64,000 bases of DNA from NCBI GenBank assembly GCA_963765815.1, contig CAVXXT010000008.1, positions 178,666-242,665 on the forward strand, written 5' to 3'. Positions within the stretch are counted from its first letter, which is position 1, and the number at the start of each line of letters is the position of its first letter. The stretch is from an uncultured Actinomycetota bacterium. Lineage in GTDB: Bacteria > Actinomycetota > Actinomycetes > BP-191. Shown one piece after another: positions 19,063 to 41,396 of this stretch. Made by a program: the position numbers and the translations under genes. The notes under the pieces are model-generated. The model did not search any database. It was given only the letters and a program-made list of their open reading frames with translations, and was not told the origin of the DNA.

Positions 19063-21411
19063 GCACCGCGACCGTCGCCGTCGATCCGACGATCGACGGA
19101 GATGCGCCGTTTCGGCTGCTGCTGATCGAGGACTCGACCGCCGACAGCGAGCTGGTGCTCGCCCTGCTCGAGGACGGACTGCCCCAGGCCACGGTCCGCG
19201 TGGTCGCGACTCTTCAGGACGCGCTCGCCGAGCTCGAGGTGAACGACTACGACGCCACGCTGGCTGATCTCTCACTGCCCGACGCCGACGGCCTGGCGGT
19301 CGTCCGCGCCGTCCGGTCCGCCCACCCCGCGACGGCACTGCTCGTGCACACCAGCCGCGTCGACGGTCGCCTCGCCCTGTGGGCGCTGGCCGAAGGGGCG
19401 CAGGACTACCTGGTGAAAGGCGCGCAGGACGGTGCGCATCTGGCCGTGTCCCTGCTCCATGCGCTGCAGCGCCAACGAGCCGAGCAGGAGAAGAACCGCT
19501 ACCTGCAGCTCGCGCGCGGTCTGCTGAACGCGTTGGAGGCAGCCACCTGCGCCGTTGACGGCGACGGCGTGATCATCGCCGCGAACGCGGCGTGGCAGGA
19601 CCTCATCGACTTCACCGAGGGTTCTGCAGCCGACTGCGGTGAGGGGAGCCAGTACGACGAGGTGTGCGGCGCCGCGATGAGGACCGTCGGGCCAGCGGCG
19701 ATCGAGGACGTGGTGCGGGGGCTGCGCGCGGTGCTCGCCCGACGCGTGGACCGCTTCCAGCTCGAGTACCCGTGCCAGGGGTCGGACGGCGCCGAGCGCT
19801 GGTTCAGCGTGCGCATCTCGCCGGGGGACCGCGACGGGGGCTTCGGCGCGGTCGTGAGTCACGTCGACGTGACCGCGATGCGGCTGGTGCAGGAGGAGCT
19901 CTCGCGGCAGACGCTGCACGACGCGCTCACCGGGCTGCCCAACCGGCTGCTCCTCACCGACCGGCTAGGGCAGGCACTGACCGACGCCGAGCGCCGCGGG
20001 TCGAAAGTGGGGGTCGGGTTCCTCGACCTCGACCACTTCAAACGGGTCAACGACAGCCTCGGGCACTCGGCCGGCGACGAGCTGCTCGTCCAGGTCGCCG
20101 CTCGGCTCTCCGCCGCGCTGCGCGCCGGTGACACGCTCGCGAGGTTCGCCGGCGACGAGTTCGTCGTCGTGTGGCGCGACCTCGCGTCGCGGGACGAGGT
20201 CGAGCTGCTCGTCGAGCGGCTTGCCCGCACGTTGGACGATCCCTTTCGGCTCGGGGAGACGTCGGTCACGGTCACGGCCAGCGTGGGTGTCGTCGTCGGC
20301 GCTGCGCCGCAGACGGTCGACGCGCTTCTCGCCGACGCCGATGCGGCGATGTACGACGCGAAGACCCACGCGCGCGGTCGGGCCCGGGTGTTCACCGACG
20401 AGATGCGCCGCGACGCCGCCGACCGGATGAGCACCGAGGTCCTCCTCCGCGCCGCGGTGCAGAAGGACGAGCTGGTGCTGCACTACCAGCCGGTCGTGGA
20501 CCTGGGCACCGGGAAGGTAGTCGGCGTTGAGGCGCTGGTCCGGTGGCAGCACCCCGAGCGAGGTCTCGTGGGCCCGGCGGAGTTCATCCCGATCGCGGAG
20601 GCGAGCGGGCTGATCGTCCCGCTCGGGCGGCTGGGTGCTCGAGCGCGCCTGCCGCGACGCCGCGGCGATCTCGGGGCCGGCGTCGTCGCTCGAGATGGCG
20701 GTCAACCTGTCGGCGTTCGAGCTGACGCAGCCGGACGTGATCAAGAACGTGCAGGACGCGCTGCGGTTCAGCGGGCTCGACCCTGCGCGGCTGCTGATCG
20801 AGGTCACCGAGTCGGCCCTGATGGAGGACGAGGAGGCGGCCGCCCTCGCCCTCGACGAGTTCGCGCGACTCGGCGTCCGCGTCGCGATCGACGACTTCGG
20901 CACCGGCTACAGCTCGCTGCTGTACCTCCGGCGTTACCCGATCCGGGCGATCAAGCTCGATCGCGCCTTCGTCAGCGGCATCGGCTCCAGCGCCGACGAC
21001 GAGGCGATCTGCAAGAGCGTGGTGAGCCTGGCCAAGGCGGTCTGCGCGATCTCGATCGCCGAAGGCGTCGAGACCGCGGAGCAGTACGCCGCACTGCGTT
21101 CCTACGGGTGCCGACTGGCGCAGGGCTACCTGTGGTCGCCCGCGGTGTGCCTCGACGACCTGGCCGAGGCAATCACCCGGTGCGAGCAGGTGCCGGTGCC
21201 CGCGCCGACGTACCGCCAGCGCAAGGCTGGTCCGACGATCGGCGTCGCGACGACGGAGCGGATCCAGAGCCTGTACGCCGACGGCGCGTCGCTGCACACG
21301 ATCGCCAACGTCCTCAACCAGGACGAGGTGCCGTGCCCGACCGGACGGCGCTGGAGCTCCAGCAGCGTGGCGCTGCTCTACTCGAACGCCGGCGCCGCGG
21401 CACCGTCATAG
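19059..21411 (+). pseudogene. REC-PAS-GGDEF-EAL c-di-GMP protein, frameshifted within the EAL domain near 20628-20632, with a recombinase-like C-terminal tail
   Basis: Frame 1 reads REC (LLLIEDSTAD), PAS, GGDEF (RFAGDEFVV) and the EAL start (EALVRWQHP...IVPLGR). The sequence continues in the frame of ORF 20635-21411 (WVLERACRDAA...IEVTESAL...AIDDFGTGYSS). An extra G sits in a short G run. Confidence 0.7.
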
Positions 21412-24004: not shown

Positions 24005-25786
24005 TCAATCGGGGAGGGTGACCTTCTCCGGTACGGCGAGGGGCTGGACGCGGTAGCGGATCCGTCCCGGCGCGTCTCGCAGCGTCACGACGATCGTGTG
24101 TGTCACGCCGGGCTCGAGGTCCAGGTCAACCGTGACGAACGGGTGGGTCGCCTCGACGCCGGAGGTGAAGCGCGCGGCCTTGCCGTCGATGGTCACGGTG
24201 GAGAACGTGGCGGACGGTCCGGCGTAGACGCTCACCAGCTCGCGCGTCGAGCCCAGCACCGCGGCAGCGCGATGGTCGTCGAGGCGCAGGGTCTGCGTCG
24301 GCGACAGCGAGCTCACCGCGGGCGGTCGGTTGGTGAGTCGGACGGTCACCGATGTCTCGTCCGCAGCGCGAGCGACGGCGACGTCTCGACGGATGAACGC
24401 GTCCATCTTCCCGCCGCCGATGTTCTGCGTGGTGACCTGCACGAAGGGCCCGGTGCGCGGAAGCACGCTGCCGATCGCGGTCTCGTCGAGGAGGCGCTGC
24501 TCGTCGGCATGTGTGCTGGCGAGCTGGAAGTCGCCGGCCTTCAGGCCACCGGCCGCGATCGACTGCAGGTCGTTGAGCGAGAGCTTCGCGGAGATGAGCT
24601 TGTCGAGCGCCTTCTCGGCCAGCTCGGCGTTGGCGGCCTTGCGGGCCGGGTTGCTCTCGGCGAACTGGGAGTACTGCTCCACCTGCATGTAGTGCTCGGC
24701 GTTGGCACCGGTCACCGTCGTCCCGTCCGAGAGCCGCACCGGACCGGTCTCCGTGAGGATCCGTCCGATCGCGCGCGGGTTGAGCCCGAGCACGGCGTCG
24801 ACCCGCTGACCGGTCTGCGCGGTCCACAGCGTCGCCATGCGTGAGCTGGCGATGAGCCAGTCGGGCGTCGCGTTGGATCCTGCCCAGGTCTGCATCGCGG
24901 CCGTGCGGCCGGCACCGCCTGCGGCGAGCTGGGCGTACACCAGCTCGAAGCCGGTCAGGTCGAAGTTGCCGGTCGATGGGGTGAACCGCGCGAGGTCGCG
25001 GTTGATGCCGCTGCGTACGACGTCGATTCGGCCCTTGTCGACCTGGGCGATCGCGTAGCCGGTGACCAGCCCGCCGGTGGCGCGCGCCTCGGCCGGGTTC
25101 TGCACGGCGATGACATACGTCCGTACGCCGTCCGCCCCGAGCATCGGCACCGCGAGCCGCAGCGCGCGGTCTGCCTGGTCCATGCGCGTCCGCAGCCGGC
25201 CGACCTCGCGCAGCAGGTCCGACCGCCCTTGCCGCAGCGTCCCCAGCAGACCGCCGGAGGACATCCCCTCGAGGCGGGACTGGGCCGCGCGCCCGGCCGC
25301 CGCGGCGCGCGTCACCTGGGTGTGCAGCGAGCGGATCGCCGGCAGGTCGACCACTCCCGACTCGAACGGCGGGTCGTCCTCGACGTCGGCGAGCGCGTTG
25401 GACGCGGGGCCGAGCGCGTCGGTGGCGAGGTCGTCGACGACCCCGGTCAGGGTGCGCACCGCCGAGATCTGCCGGCCGAGCAGCGGCACCCTCGACGAGA
25501 TCTTCCAAAGGACACCCGACGTCGCGTCGTGCGCTGACGCCGCCCGCTTCGTGAGCTGCGCGACGTGGTCGCGCGCTCCCGCGATGTCGCCGTCGTCGAG
25601 GTCGCGCTCGAGGATGCGCGCGACCCGCCGGGCCTCCTCCAGGTCGCGTTTCGCGGTCAGCGCGTCGCGCAGGAACAGGCCGCCGACGACGAGTACGACG
25701 GCACCGACCCCGATGCCGATCTGCCGGCGCCGCTTGCGCCGGCCGGCCTTGTTGAGCTTTCCCCGCTTCGAGGAGCGCTCCGTCAC
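24005..25786 (-). CDS. DUF4012 domain membrane protein (polysaccharide-locus associated)
   Basis: GTG 25786 overlaps the upstream stop (GTGA) and is frame-checked. It has an N-terminal basic region plus a TM helix. MLGADGVRTYVIAVQNPAEARATGGLVTGYAIAQVDKGRI matches the DUF4012 core. Confidence 0.75.
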   Translation of the reverse strand: MTERSSKRGKLNKAGRRKRRRQIGIGVGAVVLVVGGLFLRDALTAKRDLEEARRVARILERDLDDGDIAGARDHVAQLTKRAASAHDATSGVLWKISSRVPLLGRQISAVRTLTGVVDDLATDALGPASNALADVEDDPPFESGVVDLPAIRSLHTQVTRAAAAGRAAQSRLEGMSSGGLLGTLRQGRSDLLREVGRLRTRMDQADRALRLAVPMLGADGVRTYVIAVQNPAEARATGGLVTGYAIAQVDKGRIDVVRSGINRDLARFTPSTGNFDLTGFELVYAQLAAGGAGRTAAMQTWAGSNATPDWLIASSRMATLWTAQTGQRVDAVLGLNPRAIGRILTETGPVRLSDGTTVTGANAEHYMQVEQYSQFAESNPARKAANAELAEKALDKLISAKLSLNDLQSIAAGGLKAGDFQLASTHADEQRLLDETAIGSVLPRTGPFVQVTTQNIGGGKMDAFIRRDVAVARAADETSVTVRLTNRPPAVSSLSPTQTLRLDDHRAAAVLGSTRELVSVYAGPSATFSTVTIDGKAARFTSGVEATHPFVTVDLDLEPGVTHTIVVTLRDAPGRIRYRVQPLAVPEKVTLPD

Positions 25787-26847
25787 GAAGCGGACACTGC
25801 GGGAGCAGGTGACGGCGACGCCGACGGCTCGATGGGGTGGAACGGCGGCGGCGGGGAGTCGTCGACCGCCGAGGGCGCGGCGGCGCGGGTCGGCGCCGGC
25901 GACACGGTCTGCCCCGCGTCGTCGAGCCAGTGCACGCCCGCGTCCTTCGTCTCGAGCACGACGAGCCGGCCGGCCTTCAGGCCGATGAGGATCCCCTTGC
26001 CGTCGGCCTGGAAGTCGGCGTCGAAGATCTTCACGACCCCGCCGACGCAGGCCGCCTTCGCCCACTTCAGGCCGCGGTCGGGGGTGATGCGGAGCTCTCC
26101 GGCGGTGCAGCGGTCGCTCTTGCCGATCCGGATCCAGCCGAGCGGGCCGTCGCGGAAGACGAGCGACTCCACGGCCCCGGGGCTGTCGATCCCGCCGGGT
26201 TGGGAGTCGATCCGCCGCTCCCAGCTCGCGCCGGCGTTGATCGTGCGCGCCAGCATGCGCTGCCCCTCCCGGCGCCCCTGGCAGAGGACCCACGCCCGCT
26301 TCGCGTCCAGCGCGGACACCAGCTGGGGCGGGCCGTCGTTGCTGCCGCACGGCGACTTCACGACCCGGCCCTCGACGGCGACCTCGTACGCCGCCGTCAC
26401 CGACGGCCGCGAGATCGTCCAGAGCGCGCCGTTGGCCAGGTCGAGCGCGACCACGCCGGGCGGCGTCTTCGGGGTGCGGATCCAGCTCACCCCGCCGTTG
26501 CTCGAGCTGAGCACGGTACGACGGCAGTCGACGTCGCGGCCGAGCAGCACGGCCTGCCCGCCGGTGTCGATCGAGATCTGGTCGACGGTGACGAGGGGGA
26601 CGGACACCGGCTGCCACGAGATAGCGGTACGCCGCTCGACGACGGTCGTGGCCGCGTTGCGGGTGCAGGCCGCCGGGCCGGTCCAGCGCAGGGCGTCGGT
26701 GCCGGTCGGCGCCAGCGCGACCACTCCTCCCTCGGCCGGCACGACGGTGTCGACCGGGGTGTCGGTCGGGCGGAGGGCCAGGTAGGCGAGCGTCCCCGTT
26801 CCGGCGGCGAGGACGGCGACGCCGGCCGCGGCGAGCAGCCGGTTCAC
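25783..26847 (-). CDS. Membrane-anchored BNR/Asp-box beta-propeller protein (copy 1)
   Basis: 354 aa with an N-terminal TM anchor. Asp-box-like repeats are SSSNGGVSW, TINAGASW, TPDRGLKW and TKDAGVHW. It has a Pro/Ala-rich tail. Confidence 0.7.
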   Translation of the reverse strand: MNRLLAAAGVAVLAAGTGTLAYLALRPTDTPVDTVVPAEGGVVALAPTGTDALRWTGPAACTRNAATTVVERRTAISWQPVSVPLVTVDQISIDTGGQAVLLGRDVDCRRTVLSSSNGGVSWIRTPKTPPGVVALDLANGALWTISRPSVTAAYEVAVEGRVVKSPCGSNDGPPQLVSALDAKRAWVLCQGRREGQRMLARTINAGASWERRIDSQPGGIDSPGAVESLVFRDGPLGWIRIGKSDRCTAGELRITPDRGLKWAKAACVGGVVKIFDADFQADGKGILIGLKAGRLVVLETKDAGVHWLDDAGQTVSPAPTRAAAPSAVDDSPPPPFHPIEPSASPSPAPAVSAS

Positions 26848-27116
26848 GCGTCGACCTCCGCCAGCAGGTCGCGCGCGAGCAGGTCCTCGATCAGCGGCTC
26901 GACGTCACGCGCGATGGTGACCGGCTCGACGTCGTACCGCTCGGCGAGCGTCGTGACGACGAGATCCGGGTCACCGGACTCCATCAGCAGCTGCCACACC
27001 TGGGCGGCGTGCGCGGACAGTCCGATCCACTCCCCGGTGCCGAGGTGCATGACGATCGCGGACTCGCCGTCGAGCACCCACCCCACGTGGTCGGGCTTGG
27101 CGTAGCGAGCGCTCAT
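26844..27116 (-). CDS. PqqD-family (RRE-like) small protein, copy 1
   Basis: ATG 27116 (frame-checked). 90 aa: ...VLDGESAIVMHLGTGEWIGLSAHAAQVWQLL...LAERYDVEPVTIARDVEPLIEDLLARDLL. Its stop overlaps the propeller start by 4 nt. Confidence 0.7.
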   Translation of the reverse strand: MSARYAKPDHVGWVLDGESAIVMHLGTGEWIGLSAHAAQVWQLLMESGDPDLVVTTLAERYDVEPVTIARDVEPLIEDLLARDLLAEVDA

Positions 27117-27192
27117 GTCCGGTCCCCGGGGGTGTGTCACACTCGGGATGTTCGCAGGCACGTTCATCCGCGCATTCTCCCTTGGACGGCTA

Positions 27193-28656
27193 GTGGATCT
27201 TCGCGATTACGTCCGACTTCTTCGTGTCCGTCGGCTGCTGATCATCACCTGCACGCTGCTCGGCCTGGCCGCAGCGGCCGCAGTGACGCTCGCCGCGACG
27301 CCTATCTATCAGGCGAAGGCGCGGCTGTTCGTGTCCTCGTCGGACAGCGGCAGCCTCGGCGCGGCCTACACCGGGTCGCTCTTCACCCAGGCCCGGGTGA
27401 AGTCCTACGTCACCTTGATCGACAGCCCGCCGGTGCTGCAGCCGGTCATCGAGGACCTCGGGCTCAACCTCACCACCTCCCAGCTCGCGGCGAAGGTCTC
27501 CGGCGACGCGCCGCTGGACACCGTGCTGATGACCGTCAGCGCCAACGACGAGTCGCCGGCGCAGGCGCAGCGGATCGCCAATGGCGTCTCCGACCAGCTC
27601 ACCGAGGTCATCAACAAGCTCGACACCACCGGCGCCGGGTCGCTGGTCAAGATCACCGTCGTGCAGCCGGCCCAGCTGCCCGGCTCGCCGATCACCCCGC
27701 GACGCAACCTCAACCTCGCGCTCGGCCTGCTGGTCGGCCTCGCGGTCGGCGTCGGCGCGGCGGTGGCCAAGGAGGCGCTCGACACGACGGTGAAGAGCGT
27801 CGAGGAGCTTCAGGAGTCCTTCGGGGTGAGCACACTCGGTGTCATCGCCAGTGACCCCGACACGCCGAAGCGCCCGCTGATCGTCCACGCGTCACCCCAC
27901 GCGCCACGGGCTGAGGCGTTCCGCCAGCTCCGCACCAACCTGCAGTTCGTCAACGTCGACGCCGAGCCGCGGTCGATCGTGGTGACCAGCGCGGTGCCCG
28001 GCGAGGGCAAGAGCACCACCGCCTGCAACCTGGCGATCACCATCGCCCACTCCGGCGTGCCGGTGATCCTGGTCGAGGGCGACCTGCGCCGGCCCAAGGT
28101 CGCGGAGTACATGGGACTGGAGGGCGCGGTCGGCCTCACCGACCTGCTCATCGGCCGCGCCGAGGTCGAGGATGTGCTGCAGCCGTGGGGCGGCGACGGG
28201 CGCCTGCAGGTGCTGCTGTCCGGTGCGCTGCCGCCGAATCCGTCGGAGGTGCTCGGCTCGCACCACATGGTGGAGATCCTGCGTGAGCTCGAGTCGCGGG
28301 CGCTGGTCATCATCGACGCTCCGCCTCTCCTGCCGGTGACCGACGCTGCGGTCCTGTCGACCGTGGTGAGCGGAACCCTGGTCGTGGTCGCGGCGAACCG
28401 GACCCGCCGTGACCAGCTGAACCACGCGGTGGAGGCGATCCGCAGCGTCGGCGGGGTGGTCTTCGGCGCGGTGCTGAACATGGTGCCGAGCAAGGGCCCG
28501 GACGCCTACCGCTACGGCTACGGGTACGGCGCCGACTACGCCTACGGCCCGGACGAGCAGGCCGCGGCCCGCAAGAAGCGTCCGAAGCGGCTCGACGCGC
28601 CGGTGCCGGTGCGCGCCGGCACTCCCGGCGCGCGCTCCAGCTCAGCCGGCGAGTAG
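27193..28656 (+). CDS. Polysaccharide co-polymerase / BY tyrosine autokinase (Wzz domain plus CpsD-like ATPase), copy 1
   Basis: Walker A SAVPGEGKSTTACNLA, A' VILVEGDLRRP, B LVIIDAPPLL, and a Tyr-rich tail YRYGYGYGADYAYG. The start is GTG 27193 or ATG 27148 (the track ORF begins at 27115). Confidence 0.85.
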   Translation: MDLRDYVRLLRVRRLLIITCTLLGLAAAAAVTLAATPIYQAKARLFVSSSDSGSLGAAYTGSLFTQARVKSYVTLIDSPPVLQPVIEDLGLNLTTSQLAAKVSGDAPLDTVLMTVSANDESPAQAQRIANGVSDQLTEVINKLDTTGAGSLVKITVVQPAQLPGSPITPRRNLNLALGLLVGLAVGVGAAVAKEALDTTVKSVEELQESFGVSTLGVIASDPDTPKRPLIVHASPHAPRAEAFRQLRTNLQFVNVDAEPRSIVVTSAVPGEGKSTTACNLAITIAHSGVPVILVEGDLRRPKVAEYMGLEGAVGLTDLLIGRAEVEDVLQPWGGDGRLQVLLSGALPPNPSEVLGSHHMVEILRELESRALVIIDAPPLLPVTDAAVLSTVVSGTLVVVAANRTRRDQLNHAVEAIRSVGGVVFGAVLNMVPSKGPDAYRYGYGYGADYAYGPDEQAAARKKRPKRLDAPVPVRAGTPGARSSSAGE

Positions 28657-28911
28657 CCCGCGGGCGGCGAAGTCCGCGAGCAGCACGTCCACCTCGATCA
28701 CGATCTGCTGCGGGTCGACGTCGTACCGCTCGGCCAGCACCGCCGCCACCTCGGCCGGCCCGCGCTCGCCGTCGAGCAGGTCGAACACCTCGACCGCGCG
28801 TACGTCGAGCAGGTTGAGCCGCTCCCCGTCGAACGTGACGATCTCGCCGTCGATGCGGGCGATCTCGATCGCCGGGTTGGGCCTCACACCATCGTCTCGA
28901 TCGCGTCGCAT
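28642..28911 (-). CDS. PqqD-family (RRE-like) small protein, copy 2
   Basis: 89 aa: ...IARIDGEIVTFDGERLNLLDVRAVEVFDLL...LAERYDVDPQQIVIEVDVLLADFAARGLLAG. It is a paralogue of copy 1 and overlaps the kinase-like gene by 28 nt. Confidence 0.7.
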   Translation of the reverse strand: MRRDRDDGVRPNPAIEIARIDGEIVTFDGERLNLLDVRAVEVFDLLDGERGPAEVAAVLAERYDVDPQQIVIEVDVLLADFAARGLLAG

Positions 28912-29699
28912 GCCGCGTCGAGGTCGCCGAAGACAAGCCGACCGGTGGCGCAGCCCTCAGTCGCGCCGGCGATCGCGTCGAGGGCATGGGGGAACAGGTG
29001 ACCGAGGCGGCTGGTGTTCTGGCCCAGCGCCATCATCGCGGTGGCCCGTGACACGGCGTCGACCGACGCCGTCGCCGACGCGTCGTACCGCGGCAGCAGG
29101 ACGTGCGTCGGGGTGCACTCGTCGTGCCGGACGACGCAGCCTGCCCGGATCTGCGAGGCCGGGACCTGCCAGGTCGGCTCGGCGTAGCGGCTCGGGACCG
29201 GCGCGTAGGCCGCGAGGACCGGCTGGGAGCCGGCCTTGACCGTCAGCGGCTTCGGGTACGGCGTGATTCGGCGGGTCGTCGGATCGACGACCACGGCCTC
29301 GTCGCTCAGGTAGTCCCAGCCACGAGCGATCAGCCCGGCGGTCAGGGTGGTCTTCCCCGAGCCGGACGTGCCGGAGAGCACGACCGTCCGGTCGCCCTTC
29401 GAGAGCCCCGCCGCGTGGAATATCAGCTTTCCCGTCGATGCGGTCACGACCGCGAGGTTGAGGAACTGGACGAGCAGCACCCCGGGCATGGCGCCGGTGT
29501 AGTCGGCCTCGGCGATCAGCTCGCCAGCACGAAAGAGGCCGCAGCGCGTCCCCTCGACCCGGAGGTCGAGAGGAGCTGCTGCGGCCTCTTCCGTGGCTAG
29601 CAGGTCCTGCAGGATGGTGCTGAGGTACGCCGTGTGCTCGGCGTCGAGTCCCCGAACAGCGGTGAGGGGACCCAGCGCGTTGGTCAGCGAACCGTCGTG
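28884..29699 (-). CDS. HPr-kinase-like P-loop protein (HprK-related kinase); start codon unresolved
   Basis: The track ORF starts at ATG 29489 (P-loop LSGTSGSGKTT). The frame stays open with coding-like GC3 for 70 more codons up to the in-frame TAG at 29700-29702. No ATG/GTG/TTG occurs in that stretch. Confidence 0.6.
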   Translation of the reverse strand, partial: HDGSLTNALGPLTAVRGLDAEHTAYLSTILQDLLATEEAAAAPLDLRVEGTRCGLFRAGELIAEADYTGAMPGVLLVQFLNLAVVTASTGKLIFHAAGLSKGDRTVVLSGTSGSGKTTLTAGLIARGWDYLSDEAVVVDPTTRRITPYPKPLTVKAGSQPVLAAYAPVPSRYAEPTWQVPASQIRAGCVVRHDECTPTHVLLPRYDASATASVDAVSRATAMMALGQNTSRLGHLFPHALDAIAGATEGCATGRLVFGDLDAACDAIETMV

Positions 29700-30350
29700 C
29701 TAGAGCAGGCCGGTGACGCTGTCGACCACGTGCTCGACGACGTCGAGCAGGTCCTCGACGATGCCGCCGTCCTCGGGGTTGCCGAACGGGAGGCAGATGT
29801 TCTGTCCGGCGTGGCACTCGAGCGGGGTCGGCCCGTCCTGCTTGCAGTCCGCGGTGGAGCCGCACTGCCCGCCGAGCTTGCTGCGCTGGCAGTAGCCGAA
29901 CTGGCAGCGGCCGGAGGAGCAGTCGTCGTTGGCGCTGCAGCTCGTGCCGTAGTTGCTGCCGGTGCAGACGCCGCCGGTGCAGCGGTTGGAGTGGCAGTCG
30001 GAGTTGGACGCGCACACGGAGCCGACGACGGCCCGCGAGCACACGCCGTCGACGCACGCGCCGCTGAAGCAGTCAGTGTTGTTGGCGCAGGTCTTGCCCG
30101 CGTTGCACTGGGTGCAGTTGGGGCCGCCGCACTGGGCGGCAGGGTCGGTCGGCGACGGACACAGCTGGTTGCTGGCGGCGAAGGCCGGCGCAGCAACGGA
30201 CTGAATGACCGGAACGGCCCAGACCGCTGCGCCGACGACGCCGGCCCGCTTGATCATGTCGCGGCGGTTGATGCCCCCGAGCTCGGCGACCTCCGCAGCA
30301 GAGTCCTTGCGTGCGGCGCGCTTCGCCCATCCATCGATCCAGTCGCTCAC
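29700..30350 (-). CDS. Tat-signal secreted cysteine-rich repeat protein (20 Cys)
   Basis: 216 aa. The twin-arginine motif is INRRDMIKRAGVVGAAVWAV...APAFAAS. Four repeats of the type C-x5-C-x4-C-x4-C are present (CANNTDCFSGACVDGVC, CASNSDCHSNRCTGGVC, CSANDDCSSGRCQFGYC and a looser fourth). It has an acidic C-terminal tail. GGAAGG lies 9 nt before GTG 30350. Confidence 0.7.
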   Translation of the reverse strand: MSDWIDGWAKRAARKDSAAEVAELGGINRRDMIKRAGVVGAAVWAVPVIQSVAAPAFAASNQLCPSPTDPAAQCGGPNCTQCNAGKTCANNTDCFSGACVDGVCSRAVVGSVCASNSDCHSNRCTGGVCTGSNYGTSCSANDDCSSGRCQFGYCQRSKLGGQCGSTADCKQDGPTPLECHAGQNICLPFGNPEDGGIVEDLLDVVEHVVDSVTGLL

Positions 30351-30550
30351 GGTGTGATGCCTTCCGGTCTGGGCCTCTTACCGCGATCTGCTGGAGAGAT
30401 CTTGGATGAGCCAGGTTTAGGGGTTCACTACGCAGGGTAGCCGACTAGTTCCGCTCTGTCACTACCTCTAGTCAGAAAGAGCTAGTTAACTTTTAGTTAC
30501 GCAAGGTGACACGCCCGTCTTTGTCCCGTTTCACCCGTTTGGCTTCAGGC
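30351..30550 (-). promoter_or_regulatory. AT-richer intergenic region with short repeats, upstream of the Cys-rich gene
   Basis: TCACTAC occurs at 30425 and 30459, CTAGT at 30445, 30468 and 30482, and TAGTTA(A)C at 30483 and 30494. This is the only sizeable gap in the minus-strand string. Confidence 0.3.
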
Positions 30551-31978
30551 TCACGCGTGCGGGTCAGAGTATCGGCGTACCAGGTCGAGGACTTCAGGCC
30601 CGCCCTGGGCGAGGTCGGACGCGATCCGGCCTTCGTGCACGGCGATCGCGCACGGCGTGCCCGGGGCGCCGAACGCATCGCCGACGGCGAAGCGCGGGTC
30701 CGTGAAGAGCGGGGCGGTGAGGCCGGAGCGGCGTACGGCCTCGGGATCGCCCTTGGACACCAGCACCAGGCCGTGCGCGGTGTCCTGCAGCGCGACGAGG
30801 TCGTCGGTGATCTGGGAGCAGTAGCCGCAGGTCGGGTCCCAGAAGACGAGTACGCCGGAGTGGACCGACCTGGCCGGGTCCACCGGCGTGCCCGAGCCGT
30901 CGTCGAGCAGCACCTCCGGCGCGGGGTCCCCTTCGCGCAGCGGCGGCGGCCCGACCTGCAGCGCGCCGTGGTCGTGTCCGTGGTGGTGGTCGTGCGCCGG
31001 CTGCTGGACGCCGTTGAGCGCGAACTCGACGAGCGACCCGACCTCGATCGACCCGTGCGCCGGGCCGCCGGAGATCTTGCCGTCGGGGGCGATGAGCACC
31101 GCGGCGGGGGTGCCGTTGACCTTGAAGCTGTCCGACACCGCCCGGTTCTCGTCGAGGAGGACGGTCAGGCCGGAGTCGCCGTACTTCGCGCGCACCTGCG
31201 CCTCGCGGCCCGACGCCACCATCACGAAGTCGAGCCGACCGGCGTGCAGGTCGTGCCAGCCCTTGAAGACCGGCAGCATCTCCTCGCACGGCCCGCAGGT
31301 TGGGCTGGTGTGCAGCAGCAGGACGGGCACGCCCGGCGCGAGCAGGTCGTCGCGCGTGCGGGTGACTCCGTCGAGGTCAGGCAGCTCGAAGTCCGGCGCC
31401 GGGATCCGTGGGTCCTCGCCGCGGGCGAGGATCTCCAGCGTCTCGACCCGGTGGAGGAGCACGCCGTAGCGGGTGAAGAGCTGCCAGCCGGCGAGCAGCA
31501 CGGCGAGCAGGACCAGCGCGAGCACCCCGACCAGCAGCTCGAGCGCGGTCCGGTCGGCGAGCCAGTCGCCCGTGGTGGGACCGACACGGCTCGCGCCGAC
31601 CCCCGCGAGGGCGAGGAAGACGACGTTGCGCACCAGCGAGCGCGTGCTGATCGAGCCCTTGCTCAGCGACCCGAAGCAGTGGCAGTCGGGCTGGCGGCCG
31701 AGGGCGAGGTTGACGCCGATTCCGACGGTGAACGCGGCGAGCATGGCGAGACCGAGGATCGCGCCGTACCGGCCGGCCGTGCCGCCGATGACCAGAAGCA
31801 CTGCCGCCAGCGCCTCCAGGACGGGCAGCGCCGGCGCGATCACGGCGGCGAGCGCCTTGGGTACGCCGAACGCCTGCACCGCATCGCGCGAGCCGTCCCG
31901 GTCGCGCAGCTTGCTGATGGCCGAGAGCGCAAACACCCCGGCCAGCGCCAGGCGGCAGATCACGACGAACGAGTTCAC
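30551..31978 (-). CDS. MauE/DoxX-family membrane domain fused to two thioredoxin-fold (MauD/TlpA-like) domains
   Basis: 475 aa. The N-terminal 4-5 TM region carries DCHCFG. Thioredoxin-fold domain 1 has TCGPC, followed by a His-rich linker AHDHHHGHDHG, and thioredoxin-fold domain 2 has TCGYC. Confidence 0.8.
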   Translation of the reverse strand: MNSFVVICRLALAGVFALSAISKLRDRDGSRDAVQAFGVPKALAAVIAPALPVLEALAAVLLVIGGTAGRYGAILGLAMLAAFTVGIGVNLALGRQPDCHCFGSLSKGSISTRSLVRNVVFLALAGVGASRVGPTTGDWLADRTALELLVGVLALVLLAVLLAGWQLFTRYGVLLHRVETLEILARGEDPRIPAPDFELPDLDGVTRTRDDLLAPGVPVLLLHTSPTCGPCEEMLPVFKGWHDLHAGRLDFVMVASGREAQVRAKYGDSGLTVLLDENRAVSDSFKVNGTPAAVLIAPDGKISGGPAHGSIEVGSLVEFALNGVQQPAHDHHHGHDHGALQVGPPPLREGDPAPEVLLDDGSGTPVDPARSVHSGVLVFWDPTCGYCSQITDDLVALQDTAHGLVLVSKGDPEAVRRSGLTAPLFTDPRFAVGDAFGAPGTPCAIAVHEGRIASDLAQGGPEVLDLVRRYSDPHA

Positions 31979-32047
31979 AAGGACCGGGGGCCTTCCGGAC
32001 GGACGTGCGGTGAGGTCAGCCTCGACATTGTGTCGAACTGCGGGACG

Positions 32048-32974
32048 TCACCTGCGCCGAGCGCTTCTGACCTGGCCGGCAGCCTTCGGCAGCTTGCGCA
32101 GGATCTGACCTGTGCGCTGGAACCACGCGAGGATCAGGCCGATTCCCCGGATCCGGGCGATTGGCCATCCGTATCGGAGGAACGCGGCGGTGGGGAACAC
32201 CTCGCGCAGCAGAAGCCGCGCCTTCTCGCGGCGCGTGGCCGCCGCGAACCGCGCCAGGAAGATGGCCGGGCCGCGCGCCCCTTGTGCTCGCAAGGCCCAC
32301 TCGAGTCCCGCCTCGGCGGTGATGCCGAGCTGATCCAGGACCGCTTGTCCGGCCGGCAGCTGCGACAACCCGCTCGCGAACGGTCGCTCCGCCCCGAGCT
32401 CCCGGGCCAACGTGAGCGCGTCGGCCCATTCCTGCGTGGTTGCGTGGTCGATCGCCCGCCGGAGGTCCTCTACGGACTTCGGCCGCGCTGGTCCTGAGAT
32501 GGCCGCGTGCAAAGCGATGATCAGTGCGCGTCCGGTCACGTCTAGCTGTGTGGCGCTGCCGCTGGCGGCGCTGAACGGCTCCGTGTGCGATGACAGCAGC
32601 GCGAAGGCCTGCTCTGGCGGAACCGCTACCCCGTGAAACGTTGTGTGCAGGTCGACCTCGAACTGGACGTTGTTTCCGGAGAGCGTCGCGGCATGACGTG
32701 GCAGCTCCGACTCGGTCGTGCCTTCCCCGGTGAGGCGCCACCCCATCTGGACGAACGCGTGTATGGCCCGCGTCAGGTCGACGGGCGCCACGAGCAGGTC
32801 GACGTCACCCAGAGCGCGATCTCGGTCCGGGTAGAGCCATCGCACTGTGGAGAGGCCCTTGAGCACGATGCACGACACGCTGGCCGCGTCGAGGAGGTAG
32901 ATAGCTCGGGCGTGTTGCAGCTCGCTCCAGGCGAGAGAGCTGCCCGGGCGCCCTACGACCTCATCCCGATTCAC
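32048..32974 (-). CDS. Uncharacterised nucleotidyltransferase (NTP_transf_5-like)
   Basis: GTG 32974 (frame- and sequence-checked) lies within a 386-aa track ORF. ...CIVLKGLSTVRWLYPDRDRALGDVDLLVAP... carries the pol-beta-type G-x-D-x-D motif. Confidence 0.6.
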   Translation of the reverse strand: MNRDEVVGRPGSSLAWSELQHARAIYLLDAASVSCIVLKGLSTVRWLYPDRDRALGDVDLLVAPVDLTRAIHAFVQMGWRLTGEGTTESELPRHAATLSGNNVQFEVDLHTTFHGVAVPPEQAFALLSSHTEPFSAASGSATQLDVTGRALIIALHAAISGPARPKSVEDLRRAIDHATTQEWADALTLARELGAERPFASGLSQLPAGQAVLDQLGITAEAGLEWALRAQGARGPAIFLARFAAATRREKARLLLREVFPTAAFLRYGWPIARIRGIGLILAWFQRTGQILRKLPKAAGQVRSARRR

Positions 32975-38193: not shown

Positions 38194-39394
38194 GTGCCGT
38201 CCCCCCGTAGTGCCGCAGCAGCGCTGCGAGGTGCGTGTCCCAGCTCAGGTCGGCGGCGAGCCGCGTCACGTCAGCCGGTTCTACCGCTCCCGCGGCGAAG
38301 GCCTGGAGCGCAGCCACTGTCGCACGTTCGTCGCGTGGAGGCACCAGACGCCCGCCGCCGTACACGTTGATCAGCTCCGGCAGGCCGCCCACGTCGCTGA
38401 GCAGGGCCGGCAAGCCGCGAACGAGCGCCTCGAGCAGCGCAAGCGGCGCGTTCTCGGGCCAGGTCGACGTCATGACGAAGAACCCGGCTTCGGCGAAGCG
38501 TGCCTCCAGCTCGGCGCCGCCGAGGAACCCGGTGAACGTGACCGGCGCCCCGACCTCTGTCGCGATCGTTTCGAGTGCTGCCCGCTCGGGACCGTCCCCG
38601 ACGATCGTGACCGGCACCCCGGCGGCGGCGCTCGCCCGGATCGTCACGTCGAGGCCCTTCTCCGCGGACAGCCGCCCGACGTAGAGGCCGGACGGGCGTA
38701 CGGTCGATCGCGCCGAGACAGCTTCCGCGGGCATCGCGATCGGGTTGCGGAGGGTGTGCACGACGGTGCCGACCGACTTGAGCCAGCTCTCCGACATCCG
38801 ATCGGCCATGTACTGCGACGGCGCGAGCAGCGTGTGGGGGACTCGGCGGTCACGCCCCGCGCGCACGAAGGTCGCTTCGGCTGCGGCGACCGTGCTCCAT
38901 GCCAGCGACCCGTGCAGGCAGCGCCCGCCGATGCAGTGCGTCGGGTTCCCCGGCGCGCACCGGAAGCACTCTCGGCCGTCGCGCACCGCTGTGTACGCCG
39001 GGCAGATCAGCTTGTAGTCGTGCAGCGTGGCAAACGTCCGCACCCGCGCCTCGTGTGCGGCGGCGACGACGCTGCTCGACAGCTGGTGGGCGTAGTTGTG
39101 CAGGTGCACGACGTCGGGCCGGAAGGTACGAAGTGCGTCTGTCATCACCCGCTCAGCCGTGCGGGACCACATCACCCGCGCAGCGGCCGCGGCCTGGGCC
39201 CGAGGCCCTTCCACTCCGTGGAAGTCGATGTCGGGCACCTCGAAGACCGGAGCTGCCGGGGGGACGGCGCTCGGGCGCATGCACACGACCGCGACGTCGT
39301 GCCCGGCATCAGCCAGCCGCGCGGTCACATCGAGGAAGTAGTTGTCCGCCCCGCTCGTGCGCGTCCCGAACTTGTTGACCTGCAAGACCCTCAC
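38183..39394 (-). CDS. Family 4 glycosyltransferase
   Basis: GTG 39394 overlaps the upstream stop (GTGA) and is frame-checked. VRVLQVNKF...YVGRLSAEKG...TSTWPENAPLALLEAL. Confidence 0.85.
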   Translation of the reverse strand: MRVLQVNKFGTRTSGADNYFLDVTARLADAGHDVAVVCMRPSAVPPAAPVFEVPDIDFHGVEGPRAQAAAAARVMWSRTAERVMTDALRTFRPDVVHLHNYAHQLSSSVVAAAHEARVRTFATLHDYKLICPAYTAVRDGRECFRCAPGNPTHCIGGRCLHGSLAWSTVAAAEATFVRAGRDRRVPHTLLAPSQYMADRMSESWLKSVGTVVHTLRNPIAMPAEAVSARSTVRPSGLYVGRLSAEKGLDVTIRASAAAGVPVTIVGDGPERAALETIATEVGAPVTFTGFLGGAELEARFAEAGFFVMTSTWPENAPLALLEALVRGLPALLSDVGGLPELINVYGGGRLVPPRDERATVAALQAFAAGAVEPADVTRLAADLSWDTHLAALLRHYGGTARAD

Positions 39395-40794
39395 TGACGT
39401 GCGCAGATCTCTCGCAGCCCGGCGTGCACGCCGCGGCTGTCGGCCGGCGGGGTCGAGACGGGTCGGCTCGACGCGAAGACCGAGCGTCGGGTGTGACCGC
39501 CGGACAGCCGGCGCCGGGTGATGATCGGCGCGAAGACCGGCCCGTACATGTTCCACGTCGGCGCGTAAGCCGGGTCGAGCTCGAACAGCACCTCGGGGTA
39601 GTGGTCACCGCCGGTCGTGGTGCCGAGGACCTCCTCGCGCGGCCGTACCCACTTCACCACCTTCCGACCGCGATGGGTGAGGCCGTCGAGCAGGTCGACG
39701 GCGCGCTGGGTGATCGCGTCGTCATTGCCGGTCCGGATGCCGCCGAACGGGTTGGAGCCGGCGAGGTCCGGAACTCGCACCGATCCGTCGGCCGGCCGGC
39801 CCGCGAGCTTGCCGCTCTTCAGCGCGGCCTTGCCTGGCATGCGCCGCGCCAGCCAGATCACTGGGTCCTCGGCGTGACAGCGCGGCGCGTACGACAGCAT
39901 CGCGGTCTTCGCGGTCTCGATCGCCCGGCGGGCTGGGGTCGAGCCGGCGACGACGTACAGGCCCTCGCGCCGGAACAGCTCCTGCATGTTCACGCCGACC
40001 GAGGCGCGCGGGCCGTGGCCGTGATCGGAGAAGACGACGACCTCGTGGTCGTCGGCGCAGGCAGCGCGCGCCTCGTCGAGGAAGGCGTCGAGCTGGCGAT
40101 GCGCGGCGGGCACCAGGTCGGCGTGCTCGCTACCCGGGTAAGTCGGGTCGGTGGGGTCGAAATGACGCCAGGCGAAGTGCTCGATGCGGTCGACCGTCAG
40201 GTTGGTGTTGAAGACGGCGTCCCAGCGGTCGGCCTCGATCTGGCGCACGGCGTACCGATACTGCGCCTCGGCGACGGCCGCGGTGCTCGCCGCGAACTCG
40301 TCGATGTCGTCCTGCTTCGGAATGGTGGTGAAACCGCCCATCCGCGCCGGCGGTTCGCCGACCAGCCGGCCGTCCGGGTCGACAACCTGCGGCGGCAGCT
40401 CGCTGAACGACGGGCCCGAGACCATCGCACCGCCGGGCAGCGGCTCGAACGGCGGGTAGGCGAGGAACGGGTTGAGAACGGCGAGGCGCGTCCCTCGTGG
40501 CAGCGCCTGCCAGAAGCAGCGGTCCTCGAGACCGGCCAGGCTGGCGACCTCCGGGCCATCGGAGTTGTCGTCGAGGATGTAGTTCTTCGAGTGCAGCTGG
40601 CCGTGCTCCCAGGCCGGCACCCCGGTGAGCATCGTCGTCCACGAGGGGACCGAGTCCGGCGGGAAGGTCGACGCGTGCGGGGTCGAATCGGCGACCAGCG
40701 GGTGCAGGTTCGGCAGCTGCTCGGCACCGAGCCGCAGGACGACGTCGTGGTCGAGGCCGTCCACGCCGAGGACGAGGAGGCGGGTCCGGGTCAT
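39391..40794 (-). CDS. Alkaline phosphatase superfamily protein (type I phosphodiesterase / nucleotide pyrophosphatase-like)
   Basis: 467 aa. LVLGVDGLDHD, DSVPSWTTMLTG and VVFSDHGHG metal and nucleophile motifs. Confidence 0.7.
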   Translation of the reverse strand: MTRTRLLVLGVDGLDHDVVLRLGAEQLPNLHPLVADSTPHASTFPPDSVPSWTTMLTGVPAWEHGQLHSKNYILDDNSDGPEVASLAGLEDRCFWQALPRGTRLAVLNPFLAYPPFEPLPGGAMVSGPSFSELPPQVVDPDGRLVGEPPARMGGFTTIPKQDDIDEFAASTAAVAEAQYRYAVRQIEADRWDAVFNTNLTVDRIEHFAWRHFDPTDPTYPGSEHADLVPAAHRQLDAFLDEARAACADDHEVVVFSDHGHGPRASVGVNMQELFRREGLYVVAGSTPARRAIETAKTAMLSYAPRCHAEDPVIWLARRMPGKAALKSGKLAGRPADGSVRVPDLAGSNPFGGIRTGNDDAITQRAVDLLDGLTHRGRKVVKWVRPREEVLGTTTGGDHYPEVLFELDPAYAPTWNMYGPVFAPIITRRRLSGGHTRRSVFASSRPVSTPPADSRGVHAGLREICARQ

Positions 40795-41396
40795 CGCGCG
40801 GCCGTCACGATCGACGTGACGACGACGTCGAGGTCGTCGTCGCGGCGGCCGTCCAGCCGGCGCATCCCGAGGCGCTGAGCGGCGTCGCGGTAGCGCGCCG
40901 CTTGCCCGATGACCCGGTCGCCGTCGTCACCCGGCTTGAGCCTCCGGAGCAGCTCGTCGTCCTCCACGTCGAGATGCACCGCGAGGTCTGCGGTCGGCAG
41001 CCGGGACGCAGCGGCGGCGACCTGGTCGACTTTCAGCAGGCCGGCCGCCAGCTGGTCCACCACGAAGTCCAGGACGAACCGGTCCGCGATCACCACGTCG
41101 AGGTGCTGCGCCGCCCCGAGCTGCCACGAGAGCTGGCGTCGGTAAAGCGCTGTGTTCGCGCGGACCCACACCGGCGAGAGCCCTGATCGCCGCAGGACGC
41201 GCTTGACCGGGTGACCCCGGTGGCTCGACGAGACTGTGCTTGAGACCGTGCCCGCCGGCAGCTGCTTCGGGGCGTACCGCAGCCAGAGTCGGGCGACCGC
41301 GAGGTCAGGCGCCTCGCTCTCGAGTCGGTCGATGACCCGGCCGGCGAAGGTCGACTTGCCCGACCCGTCGACGCCGCTGATCGCACAGAGGAACAC
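40791..41396 (-). CDS. P-loop kinase-like protein (thymidylate-kinase-like fold)
   Basis: 201 aa with N-terminal ISGVDGSGKSTFA. It is 4-nt overlapped with its downstream neighbour. The substrate is unknown. Confidence 0.5.
   Translation of the reverse strand: MFLCAISGVDGSGKSTFAGRVIDRLESEAPDLAVARLWLRYAPKQLPAGTVSSTVSSSHRGHPVKRVLRRSGLSPVWVRANTALYRRQLSWQLGAAQHLDVVIADRFVLDFVVDQLAAGLLKVDQVAAAASRLPTADLAVHLDVEDDELLRRLKPGDDGDRVIGQAARYRDAAQRLGMRRLDGRRDDDLDVVVTSIVTAAR

Follow-up and report, generated by a model that had tools for sequence, protein, structure and literature searches.

What does a gene cluster act on when it combines a PqqD-type peptide chaperone, an HPr-kinase-like protein and a nucleotidyltransferase with a membrane-bound thioredoxin system and an exported cysteine-rich protein? 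This question is raised by five consecutive minus-strand genes in a 64,000-nucleotide stretch (the window) of contig CAVXXT010000008.1, from an uncultured Actinomycetota bacterium, for which the original prediction had proposed an undescribed maturation system with the Cys-rich protein as its plausible substrate. The reading favoured here, with modest confidence, is that the genes form a cassette for leader-guided protein maturation and that the 216-aa Cys-rich protein is its substrate. The proposal of that substrate was strengthened by the recurrence, beside the same kinase and PqqD core in other loci, of open reading frames (ORFs) with a signal of the twin-arginine translocation (Tat) type. 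The features on which the argument draws are listed by position in the window.

25783-27167, minus strand: possibly associated pair, PqqD1 (26844-27167; PF05402) and a 354-aa membrane-anchored or exported protein (25783-26847)
28642-28911, minus strand: PqqD2, a peptide chaperone of the PqqD family and of the RRE type (RiPP recognition element; RiPP, a peptide made on the ribosome and modified after translation), 89 aa (PF05402)
28884-29489, minus strand: HPr-kinase-like P-loop protein, short form, 201 aa (TIGR04352)
29523-29598, minus strand: long, near-perfect RNA hairpin between the precursor and kinase genes, from folding; candidate terminator, attenuator or stabiliser
29700-30350, minus strand: Cys-rich candidate precursor, 216 aa with 20 Cys (ORF and translation)
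30171-30350, minus strand: candidate precursor leader or Tat-type signal, residues 1-60 (conserved residues and weak Tat profile matches)
30551-31978, minus strand: MauE membrane domain and two extracytoplasmic thioredoxin-fold domains in one protein, 475 aa (MauE, AhpC-TSA, Redoxin and MauD matches)
32048-32974, minus strand: NTP_transf_5 nucleotidyltransferase, 308 aa, GDVDLLV motif (PF14907)

The call of five consecutive genes held, all of them being recovered by ORF listing and a filter on the GC content of third codon positions (GC3) in a window of high GC (~0.70-0.73). Furthermore, profile searches supported the family assignments (PqqD, HprK-related, MauE, AhpC-TSA and NTP_transf_5).

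The neighbourhood is conserved. Its genes co-occur elsewhere in surveys of loci made from both the kinase side and the precursor side, and related gene sets are present in at least five bacterial phyla. On the kinase side, a scan with a kinase alignment, one genome per species, yielded 40 loci from metagenome-assembled genomes (MAGs) of Actinomycetota, Planctomycetota, Acidobacteriota, Pseudomonadota, Chloroflexota and Bacteroidota, to which loci L002 and L003 were added; the relatives of the window itself are Actinomycetota MAGs. All related loci lie on MAG or metagenome contigs, several of them long-read contigs with frameshifts. A full-flank set was made up of the 24 loci in which the HprK-like gene has 4 kb or more of sequence on either side. 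Using domain hidden Markov models (HMMs) that were iterated on six-frame ORFs of related loci, the same loci serving for the counts, a PqqD gene was found within 1.5 kb of the kinase gene in 21 of the 24 full-flank loci, and near the kinase gene were found NTP_transf_5 (15/24), an ORF that matches residues 1-62 of the Cys-rich protein, here called a Tat-type ORF (14/24), a tyrosine kinase of the BY-kinase family (9/24) and a thioredoxin-fold protein (7/24). Two loci repeat the architecture of the window: L019 contains NTP_transf_5, MauE, thioredoxin, kinase, PqqD and a Cys-rich Tat protein, while L023 contains a MauE-thioredoxin protein, two Cys-rich Tat proteins, kinase, PqqD, a third Cys-rich Tat protein, a convergent BY-kinase, a further PqqD and a homologue of the 354-aa protein (P354). 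Two contigs with kinase homologues carry MauE, a thioredoxin protein, small ORFs, kinase, Wzz, PqqD with a ~300-aa protein, and DUF4012. In the survey from the precursor side, a kinase (or kinase-PqqD) gene or a MauE-thioredoxin gene was directly adjacent in all five informative contigs. Specifically, a kinase-PqqD fusion lies immediately upstream on the contig of P0026, L046 encodes MauE, thioredoxin, two Tat-type ORFs and a kinase-PqqD fusion, MauE-thioredoxin-thioredoxin lies upstream in L045, the kinase gene lies 13 nt downstream in L047, and MauE-thioredoxin lies upstream in L001.

Tat-type ORFs are concentrated at this core. Close to 87% of the leader-HMM matches (33 of 38) lie no more than 1.5 kb from a kinase, PqqD or NTP_transf_5 gene, a distance within which 26% of the non-core DNA falls (binomial P 9e-15), and 31 of the 38 share the strand of the kinase gene, statistics that overstate independence because the loci are partly related phylogenetically. 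The ORFs span at least ten lineages in Actinomycetota, Acidobacteriota, Pseudomonadota, Planctomycetota and Chloroflexota; outside Actinomycetota the link rests on Tat-likeness, position and size and not on homology, because the leader HMM recognises ordinary Tat signals. Each has a conserved N-terminal region and a hypervariable C-terminal part, often with two to four copies per locus, and judged by their sequences these ORFs behave like precursors. Those of Actinomycetota measure 100-300 aa, and most are rich in Cys. Shorter ORFs, of only 50-90 aa, occur in Acidobacteriota, Rhizomicrobium, Sedimenticola, a Phycisphaerae MAG and others; in them a tail of 5-30 residues comes after a signal such as RREFLxxxGKAAVTAPAVALLL...AAAQ. 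The gene order in the Acidobacteriota loci is NTP_transf_5, short Tat-like peptide genes, a multinuclear non-heme iron-dependent oxidase (MNIO; PF05114, E 3e-31), PqqD and kinase, which is a recognisable RiPP cluster layout; no description of this candidate class was found in the literature. As a further observation, the Acidobacteriota clusters L025, L028, L029 (6885-10558) and L032 encode one or two Tat-like peptides with Arg/Pro-rich or Gly-Asn-repeat tails, and their HprK-like kinase is full-length. In L049, one frame (767-1255, plus strand) encodes a PqqD domain, a Tat-like signal and a 6-Cys knottin-like tail (C-x6-C-x5-CC-x3-C-x4-C), either an RRE-precursor fusion or two genes in the same frame.

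The Cys-rich protein of the window, described originally as a 216-aa Tat-signal protein with four Cys repeats and an acidic C-terminal helix, was borne out in its length, repeats and helix, and it has a Tat-like signal: it contains 20 Cys, arranged as a first 4-Cys segment followed by four 25-residue repeats (G..C.....DC....C....C), and a helix is predicted at residues 198-213. Its gene starts with GTG and is preceded by GGAAGG. The signal sequence (NRRDMIKRAG..., ending AFA/AS) was compared with the Tat pattern (S/T-R-R-x-F-L-K, a moderately hydrophobic h-region and an AxA site). It stays slightly short of the cut-offs of two Tat profiles (PF10518, 14.1 against 22.7 bits; TIGR01409, 15.1 against 16.7), and a relative in L030 passes the TIGR01409 cut-off with 17.9 bits. 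The Cys-rich gene is the only match of the Tat-leader HMM in the window. Features of the leader are MxxW[ILF]DxxA[KR] at the N-terminus, R29-R30, WxxP (W44, P47) and the cleavage-type site AFA/AS. An alignment of 17 precursor relatives (~40% identity) shows no variation at W4, D6, A9, R29, R30 and P55 and hardly any at W44 and P47; conservation both ahead of and within a signal peptide is unusual. Motifs of the WxxP/YxxP type are validated sites of RRE recognition, with YxxP in lasso leaders and the WxxP of StsA bound by StsC (PMC12710340). The protein had seemed to be an orphan in a word-index search (2 matches), a view overturned when HMMER was run exhaustively against 1.84 billion representatives and 507 relatives came up at E<=1e-3, ~30 of them small proteins with the whole architecture. 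No curated family covers the precursors in profile searches. The Cys region (residues 61-190) was modelled by AlphaFold2 (AF2) with a predicted local distance difference test (pLDDT) score of 81-93, and a fold search of the PDB with the model returned nothing better than E = 4.

The kinase-like protein and PqqD2 are encoded by genes that overlap by 28 nt, and the P-loop GTSGSGKTT is present, both as originally predicted. PqqD2 matches PF05402 with E 1e-8 (35.8 bits, cut-off 23.4) and scores 17.3 bits against TIGR04353 (cut-off 35). The two PqqD proteins of the window pass the PF05402 cut-off and fall under the lasso_PqqD NCBIfam cut-offs. The best curated family for the kinase-like protein is TIGR04352 (HprK_rel_A; E 2.6e-31, 108.8 bits against a cut-off of 200), a cut-off that none of ten related kinases reaches (42-132 bits or no score). 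HPr kinase/phosphorylase proper was not matched (TIGR00679, 15.6 bits against 240; PF07475, 18.2 against 33.3), with only the P-loop region aligning, and an exact look-up of the kinase sequence gave no record. Because the TIGR04352 alignment covers only model positions 85-280, the kinase lacks the ~90-residue N-terminal domain that most relatives carry. Encoding of the missing domain upstream in another frame was considered and rejected, since the 210-nt gap contains the hairpin and no start codon, and the frame shared with the precursor gene is broken in L001. Residues H25, G45, K46, T48, D63 and E64 are conserved across 14 relatives. This kinase and the lasso-linked kinases belong to different clades, HMM E values being ~1e-60 inside its own clade and 1e-12 to 1e-16 for the lasso-linked ones. 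Natural kinase-PqqD fusions (P0006, P0014, P0015, L009, L046 and the neighbour of P0026) tie the two proteins together.

The nucleotidyltransferase matches NTP_transf_5 (PF14907) with E 2e-17 (64.1 bits against 31.2), and the GDVDLLV motif of the original prediction is present in a 308-aa protein whose start is also that of the public gene call. The sequence conforms to the Pol-beta-type signature G-x-D-x-D, with D57 and D59 invariant in 19 homologues. A PDB sequence search gave no match. The AF2 model (pLDDT 91) has as PDB fold neighbours MenT1/MenT3, LnuA, ANT(2'')-Ia and FKRP, and thus as a model resembles minimal hydroxyl-acting nucleotidyltransferases (LnuA, ANT(2'')-Ia), MenT toxins and the phospho-alcohol transferase FKRP. 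The protein shares 33-36% identity with proteins whose genes lie between sugar genes and lasso clusters of actinobacteria. Beside the closest homologues, these clusters comprise HprK-like genes, PqqD, Transglut_core3, Asn_synthase and 54-55-aa precursors, and the homologue P0176 is fused to a lasso protease domain. In L054, L056, L057 and L058 the lasso clusters, which include a GerE regulator, directly adjoin glycosyltransferase and flippase genes, with NTP_transf_5 at the junction. The gene is present in only ~60% of related loci, and among the closest relatives in L019.

The 475-aa fusion protein likewise agreed with the original account of a MauE domain and two thioredoxin folds, with CGPC at 228, CGYC at 384 and a His-rich linker at 329-337. 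Profile matches were MauE (E 6.6e-30; PF07291, 104.5 bits against 27), AhpC-TSA (E 4e-16), MauD (E 2e-13) and Redoxin, and the nearest PDB sequences are ResA/TlpA-type oxidoreductases. Transmembrane (TM)-like segments lie at 3-21, 46-64, 73-91 and 145-163, and a CHC-FG motif (C99-H-C-F-G, at residue 99) lies in the loop after the segment 73-91 (TM3). Beyond the CHCFG loop that follows TM3, the fusion continues with a fifth TM segment and two ResA/TlpA-like domains. MauE complements dsbB by means of a CXC motif, followed by F-G, between TM3 and TM4, acting as a DsbB-like oxidase, and fusion to thioredoxin-fold domains is seen in 8.2% of MauE proteins (bioRxiv 10.64898/2026.03.05.709764). Furthermore, MauE/MauD were flagged by decRiPPter beside precursors with at least 8 Cys in Streptomyces (PMC7794033). 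A MauE-thioredoxin fusion, or a split MauE and thioredoxin pair, adjoins Cys-rich Tat proteins in L001, L002, L003, L019, L023, L045 and L046. In the closest relatives of the MauE type (L002, 8045-8344; L003, 8077-8376; L046, 3119-3418), the gene of a conserved 99-aa protein (MTDEWEVRLTLAVEPPPDEG...) with no Pfam match separates the thioredoxin gene from the Tat ORFs, and no equivalent is apparent in the window.

The gene families, their linkage across loci, the kinase-PqqD fusions, the conserved leader and the lack of lasso enzymes are what the sequences show. From these observations we infer a binding partner, a chemistry (phosphorylation and nucleotidylation), an acceptor residue, an order of steps and a link to polysaccharide, as follows. 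In the cytoplasm, PqqD2 would bind the conserved leader of the precursor, the candidate contacts being the N-terminal W-x-D motif, the WxxP within the Tat-type signal, or both. PqqD2 would then present the precursor to the HPr-kinase-like enzyme for phosphorylation of a hydroxyl side chain, and NTP_transf_5 may add a nucleotide-derived group or a sugar or phospho-alcohol group at the phosphorylated site, possibly in parallel to the phosphoglycosylation of the lasso peptide pseudomycoidin. The Tat-type signal would serve as both leader and export signal, the modified protein leaving through Tat and signal peptidase cutting the leader, so that no dedicated protease or ABC exporter would be needed. 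The proposed mechanism would also account for the substrates being conserved in their signal region. Outside the membrane, MauE, as a DsbB-like, quinone-linked CXC oxidase, would reoxidise the two fused thioredoxin domains, which would form and shuffle ten disulfides of the four-repeat module. The predicted product is a secreted, disulfide-rich and probably phospho-decorated protein, presumably made together with the surrounding Wzx/Wzy polysaccharide.

The space between the precursor and kinase genes bears on how they are transcribed. Folding of 29480-29710 gave a minimum free energy (MFE) of -127.7 kcal/mol (z -6.8 against shuffles). About 100 nt at the hairpin are identical in L001, an 82%-identical relative in which the flanks diverge, and the hairpin occurs once in the window. 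It has no Rfam family, an Rfam search of 28-33.5 kb having returned only a chance miRNA match. Strong hairpins as a general feature after Tat ORFs were rejected (median best 80-nt MFE -35.4, against -32 to -35 after other genes), and in the absence of such an excess the hairpin is a local feature of the window. A scan of 26.5-34.5 kb for promoter and terminator consensus sequences found nothing above shuffled expectation. The Cys-rich and kinase genes share a frame, 29490-29702 (minus strand) consisting of one TAG and 70 codons without ATG, GTG or TTG; the shared frame is probably coincidence, because a 2-nt indel in L001 breaks it.

Several points weigh against the favoured reading. The precursor gene has its own AT-richer upstream region in addition to the very strong hairpin downstream, and therefore may be transcribed separately. 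Approximately 40% of the full-flank loci have no Tat-type ORF, and the Tat-leader HMM also picks up ordinary Tat signals: a leader-only scan of metagenomes gave six loci, in four of which (L050-L053) a Tat-type signal stands on a larger ORF and the other cassette genes are absent from the contig, these ORFs being judged by eye to be ordinary Tat substrates. Among the closest relatives of the MauE type, L002, L003 and L023 gave no NTP_transf_5 gene, nor did the shorter contig of L046. The kinase and PqqD2 score under the curated HPr-rel-A cut-offs. Lasso kinases act on a C-terminal Ser, while the Cys-rich protein ends in Leu and its relatives in varied residues; no conserved Ser/Thr acceptor was identifiable in the precursors when looked for.

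Some of these points would also fit two independent modules lying side by side, an alternative that we consider possible and clearly less probable than a single cassette. The Cys-rich protein would then be served by a private MauE-thioredoxin protein, while the kinase, PqqD and nucleotidyltransferase would act on another target in the polysaccharide locus, for instance an unrecognised small peptide or a glycan intermediate. Besides the upstream region and hairpin of the precursor gene, the nucleotidyltransferase gene itself is suggestive, in that its GC3 of 0.82 lies between that of the core genes (0.91-0.94) and that of the adjacent lower-GC polysaccharide island, at the edge of which it stands, and in that its homologue overlaps an epimerase gene in L058 and is divergent from glycosyltransferase genes in L054 and L056. 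Sets of kinase, PqqD and NTP_transf_5 genes without a detectable Tat ORF occur in L004, L006, L034-L037 and L043, and BY-kinase or sugar genes are recurrent near the core. However, many lineages that lack MauE altogether have Tat-type ORFs beside the kinase/PqqD core, and a kinase-PqqD fusion is the immediate neighbour of the Cys-rich family even on short contigs. The leader, moreover, has an RRE-type WxxP motif, and the presence of a PqqD RRE implies a peptide rather than a glycan substrate.

A regulatory system, in which the kinase, with PqqD2 as a signal-peptide adaptor, would phosphorylate Tat precursors or a partner and so gate export or couple it to polysaccharide production, much as HprK/P and BY-kinases serve as regulators, is considered unlikely. 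Such a role would suit a family related to the regulatory HPr kinase/phosphorylase, a cluster that is convergent and overlapping with a BY-kinase gene, substrates conserved in their signal region and not in their mature part, and, from general knowledge, a functional analogy to TorD, DmsD and NapD. The characterised homologues closest in context are, however, biosynthetic lasso-tailoring kinases, the Acidobacteriota combine the same core with an MNIO RiPP enzyme and short peptides, and NTP_transf_5 has no obvious regulatory role. Finally, a decayed lasso cluster, whose tailoring genes would have outlived the cyclase, protease and precursor and now lack function, is very improbable: the closest NTP_transf_5 and weaker kinase homologues do lie in intact actinobacterial lasso clusters and P0176 carries the lasso protease domain, but the ORFs here are all intact, have a high GC3 (0.82-0.94) and keep their catalytic motifs, dozens of loci across phyla share the lasso-free arrangement, and the kinase belongs to a clade other than the lasso-linked one.

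The leader-guided cassette would operate within a polysaccharide locus. Its convergence with a BY-kinase inside such a locus, as originally described, was borne out by ORF listing and profile searches of the neighbours, the BY-kinase gene (27115-28656, plus strand) overlapping that of PqqD2 by 15 nt. In the interval from 12.9 to 46.4 kb, the neighbouring genes make up a Wzx/Wzy-type locus with the BY-kinase, DUF4012, a GT2 glycosyltransferase, a MurJ-like flippase, a Wzy-like polymerase, three GT1/GT4 glycosyltransferases, Bac_transf, UDP-glucose dehydrogenase, a phosphodiesterase, a P-loop kinase and a CysN-like GTPase. In the same interval no asparagine synthetase, transglutaminase or radical SAM enzyme was found, in agreement with the original prediction, and likewise no MNIO; a check for a canonical RiPP enzyme or short precursor just outside the region also found none. 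The segment 32000-38000, which spans GT2, the MurJ-like flippase, the Wzy-like polymerase and one GT1, has a lower GC (0.64-0.66; GC3 0.73-0.76) and looks like a laterally acquired polysaccharide island. The type I phosphodiesterase/nucleotide pyrophosphatase (39391-40794), small P-loop kinase (40791-41396) and CysN-like GTPase (43917-45188) hint at sulfate or phosphate decoration of the glycan.

On the other side of the BY-kinase and divergent from it, PqqD1 (PF05402, E 2.8e-14) is translationally coupled to the gene of the 354-aa protein, which has an N-terminal hydrophobic segment and a weak BNR/Ycf48-like match. The pair holds the same BY-kinase-divergent position in L002, L003 and L023, and a PqqD-thioredoxin pair occupies that position in L005 and L010. 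Genes for AbiEi-like antitoxins or regulators occur no more than ~10-12 kb from the cassette in the window (16354-17265), L002 (19398-20324) and L003 (5491-6450). An ORF at 20635-21411 (plus strand) of the window combines a truncated EAL domain (profile positions 67-235) with a short Recombinase-domain match and may be a disrupted or chimeric gene.

Beyond the window, a bolder reading, considered less likely than not, is that there is a widespread and unrecognised class of leader-guided modified peptides and proteins in which the Tat signal would be the leader. A PqqD-type RRE would act in this class as a signal-peptide-binding proofreading chaperone that couples cytoplasmic phosphorylation and nucleotidyl or phospho-sugar transfer to Tat export, with lineage-specific additions (MNIO in Acidobacteriota, MauE-thioredoxin in Actinomycetota) and with phospho-decorated secreted peptides or mini-proteins tied to exopolysaccharide loci as products. 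If so, leader-guided (RiPP-type) chemistry would reach from short peptides to folded secreted mini-proteins, and a Tat signal used as both recognition leader and export tag would remove the need for a dedicated protease and transporter. Furthermore, two large families known by name alone, the HprK-related kinases and NTP_transf_5, would gain a function, and the newly recognised MauE oxidative-folding pathway a defined client. For genome mining, a Tat-signal ORF beside a kinase-PqqD pair would then offer a handle on products in soil Actinomycetota, Acidobacteriota and others. The repeated location in polysaccharide loci hints at a protein component or decoration of the cell envelope matrix.

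Among known systems, the nearest is the lasso tailoring set (paeninodin PadeK, the pseudomycoidin nucleotidyltransferase and the PqqD-like B1), in which the same three families stand in one cluster as in the window. The original recognition of kinase, PqqD and nucleotidyltransferase as such a set was confirmed by the literature (PMC8498205) and by the contexts of the closest NTP_transf_5 homologues. In lasso clusters, HPr-kinase homologues place a phosphate on the C-terminal Ser of the linear precursor with its leader, which the pseudomycoidin cluster's nucleotidyltransferase extends by a hexose at that phosphate (PMC8498205); a similar sequence is proposed for the window, where two PF05402 proteins correspond to the PqqD-like RRE (B1). 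In contrast to lasso clusters, no asparagine-synthetase-like cyclase (C protein) and no transglutaminase-like protease (B2, PF13471) is encoded between 12.9 and 46.4 kb, the candidate substrate is a 216-aa Tat-signal protein whose C-terminus is not Ser instead of a precursor of ~40-55 aa, a MauE-thioredoxin protein is added, and the kinase comes from another clade and lacks the N-terminal domain. The HPr-rel-A system of NCBIfam, which comprises the HprK-related kinase A (TIGR04352) and a PqqD chaperone (TIGR04353), has the same kinase and PqqD pairing; TIGR04352 is the best curated match of the kinase and TIGR04353 is among the matches of PqqD2, but neither reaches its equivalog cut-off. A literature search found no paper on HPr-rel-A, which has no described substrate or function.

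Maturation of methylamine dehydrogenase (MauA, MauE, MauD) likewise places a small Cys-rich protein beside MauE and a MauD-like CxxC thioredoxin-fold protein. MauA has its own twin-arginine signal. The window differs in having no MauA, MauB, MauG or quinone cofactor chemistry, and in uniting MauE and two thioredoxin domains in one protein that is coupled to a cytoplasmic kinase/RRE module. With the MauE proteins described as DsbB-like oxidases it shares the CXC-FG motif, and MauE-thioredoxin fusions are common (bioRxiv 10.64898/2026.03.05.709764). In bufferins (DUF2282 precursors with Sec signals, MNIO and a DUF2063 RRE partner) and in the decRiPPter MauE/MauD families, an export signal replaces the dedicated leader and protease, as is proposed for the window. 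An RRE-type partner and Cys-rich substrates are also shared with bufferins, and the Acidobacteriota relatives of the cassette contain MNIO; the window differs in its Tat-type rather than Sec-type signal and in a core of kinase and nucleotidyltransferase without MNIO.

The Tat proofreading chaperones TorD, DmsD and NapD are cytoplasmic, bind the twin-arginine signal and hold the substrate until it is mature. By a comparison from general knowledge, the same logic is proposed for PqqD2, although the winged-helix RRE fold of PqqD is unrelated and the proposed process is covalent side-chain modification and not cofactor insertion. As in RRE-dependent RiPP systems in general, the PqqD2 RRE is accompanied by co-encoded precursors with a conserved leader that includes WxxP and with a variable, often multi-copy C-terminal part. 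The original description of the system as undescribed stood in part: no paper was found in the literature search on sets of kinase, PqqD and NTP_transf_5 with Tat-leader precursors, but NCBIfam already names the HPr-rel-A kinase/PqqD system and the oxidase role of MauE is published. Each part therefore comes from a known family, while the combination with Tat-leader substrates appears to be undescribed. The cassette is accordingly regarded as a probable case of maturation that is guided by a leader, depends on an RRE and acts on Tat-signal substrates, a 20-Cys mini-protein among them.

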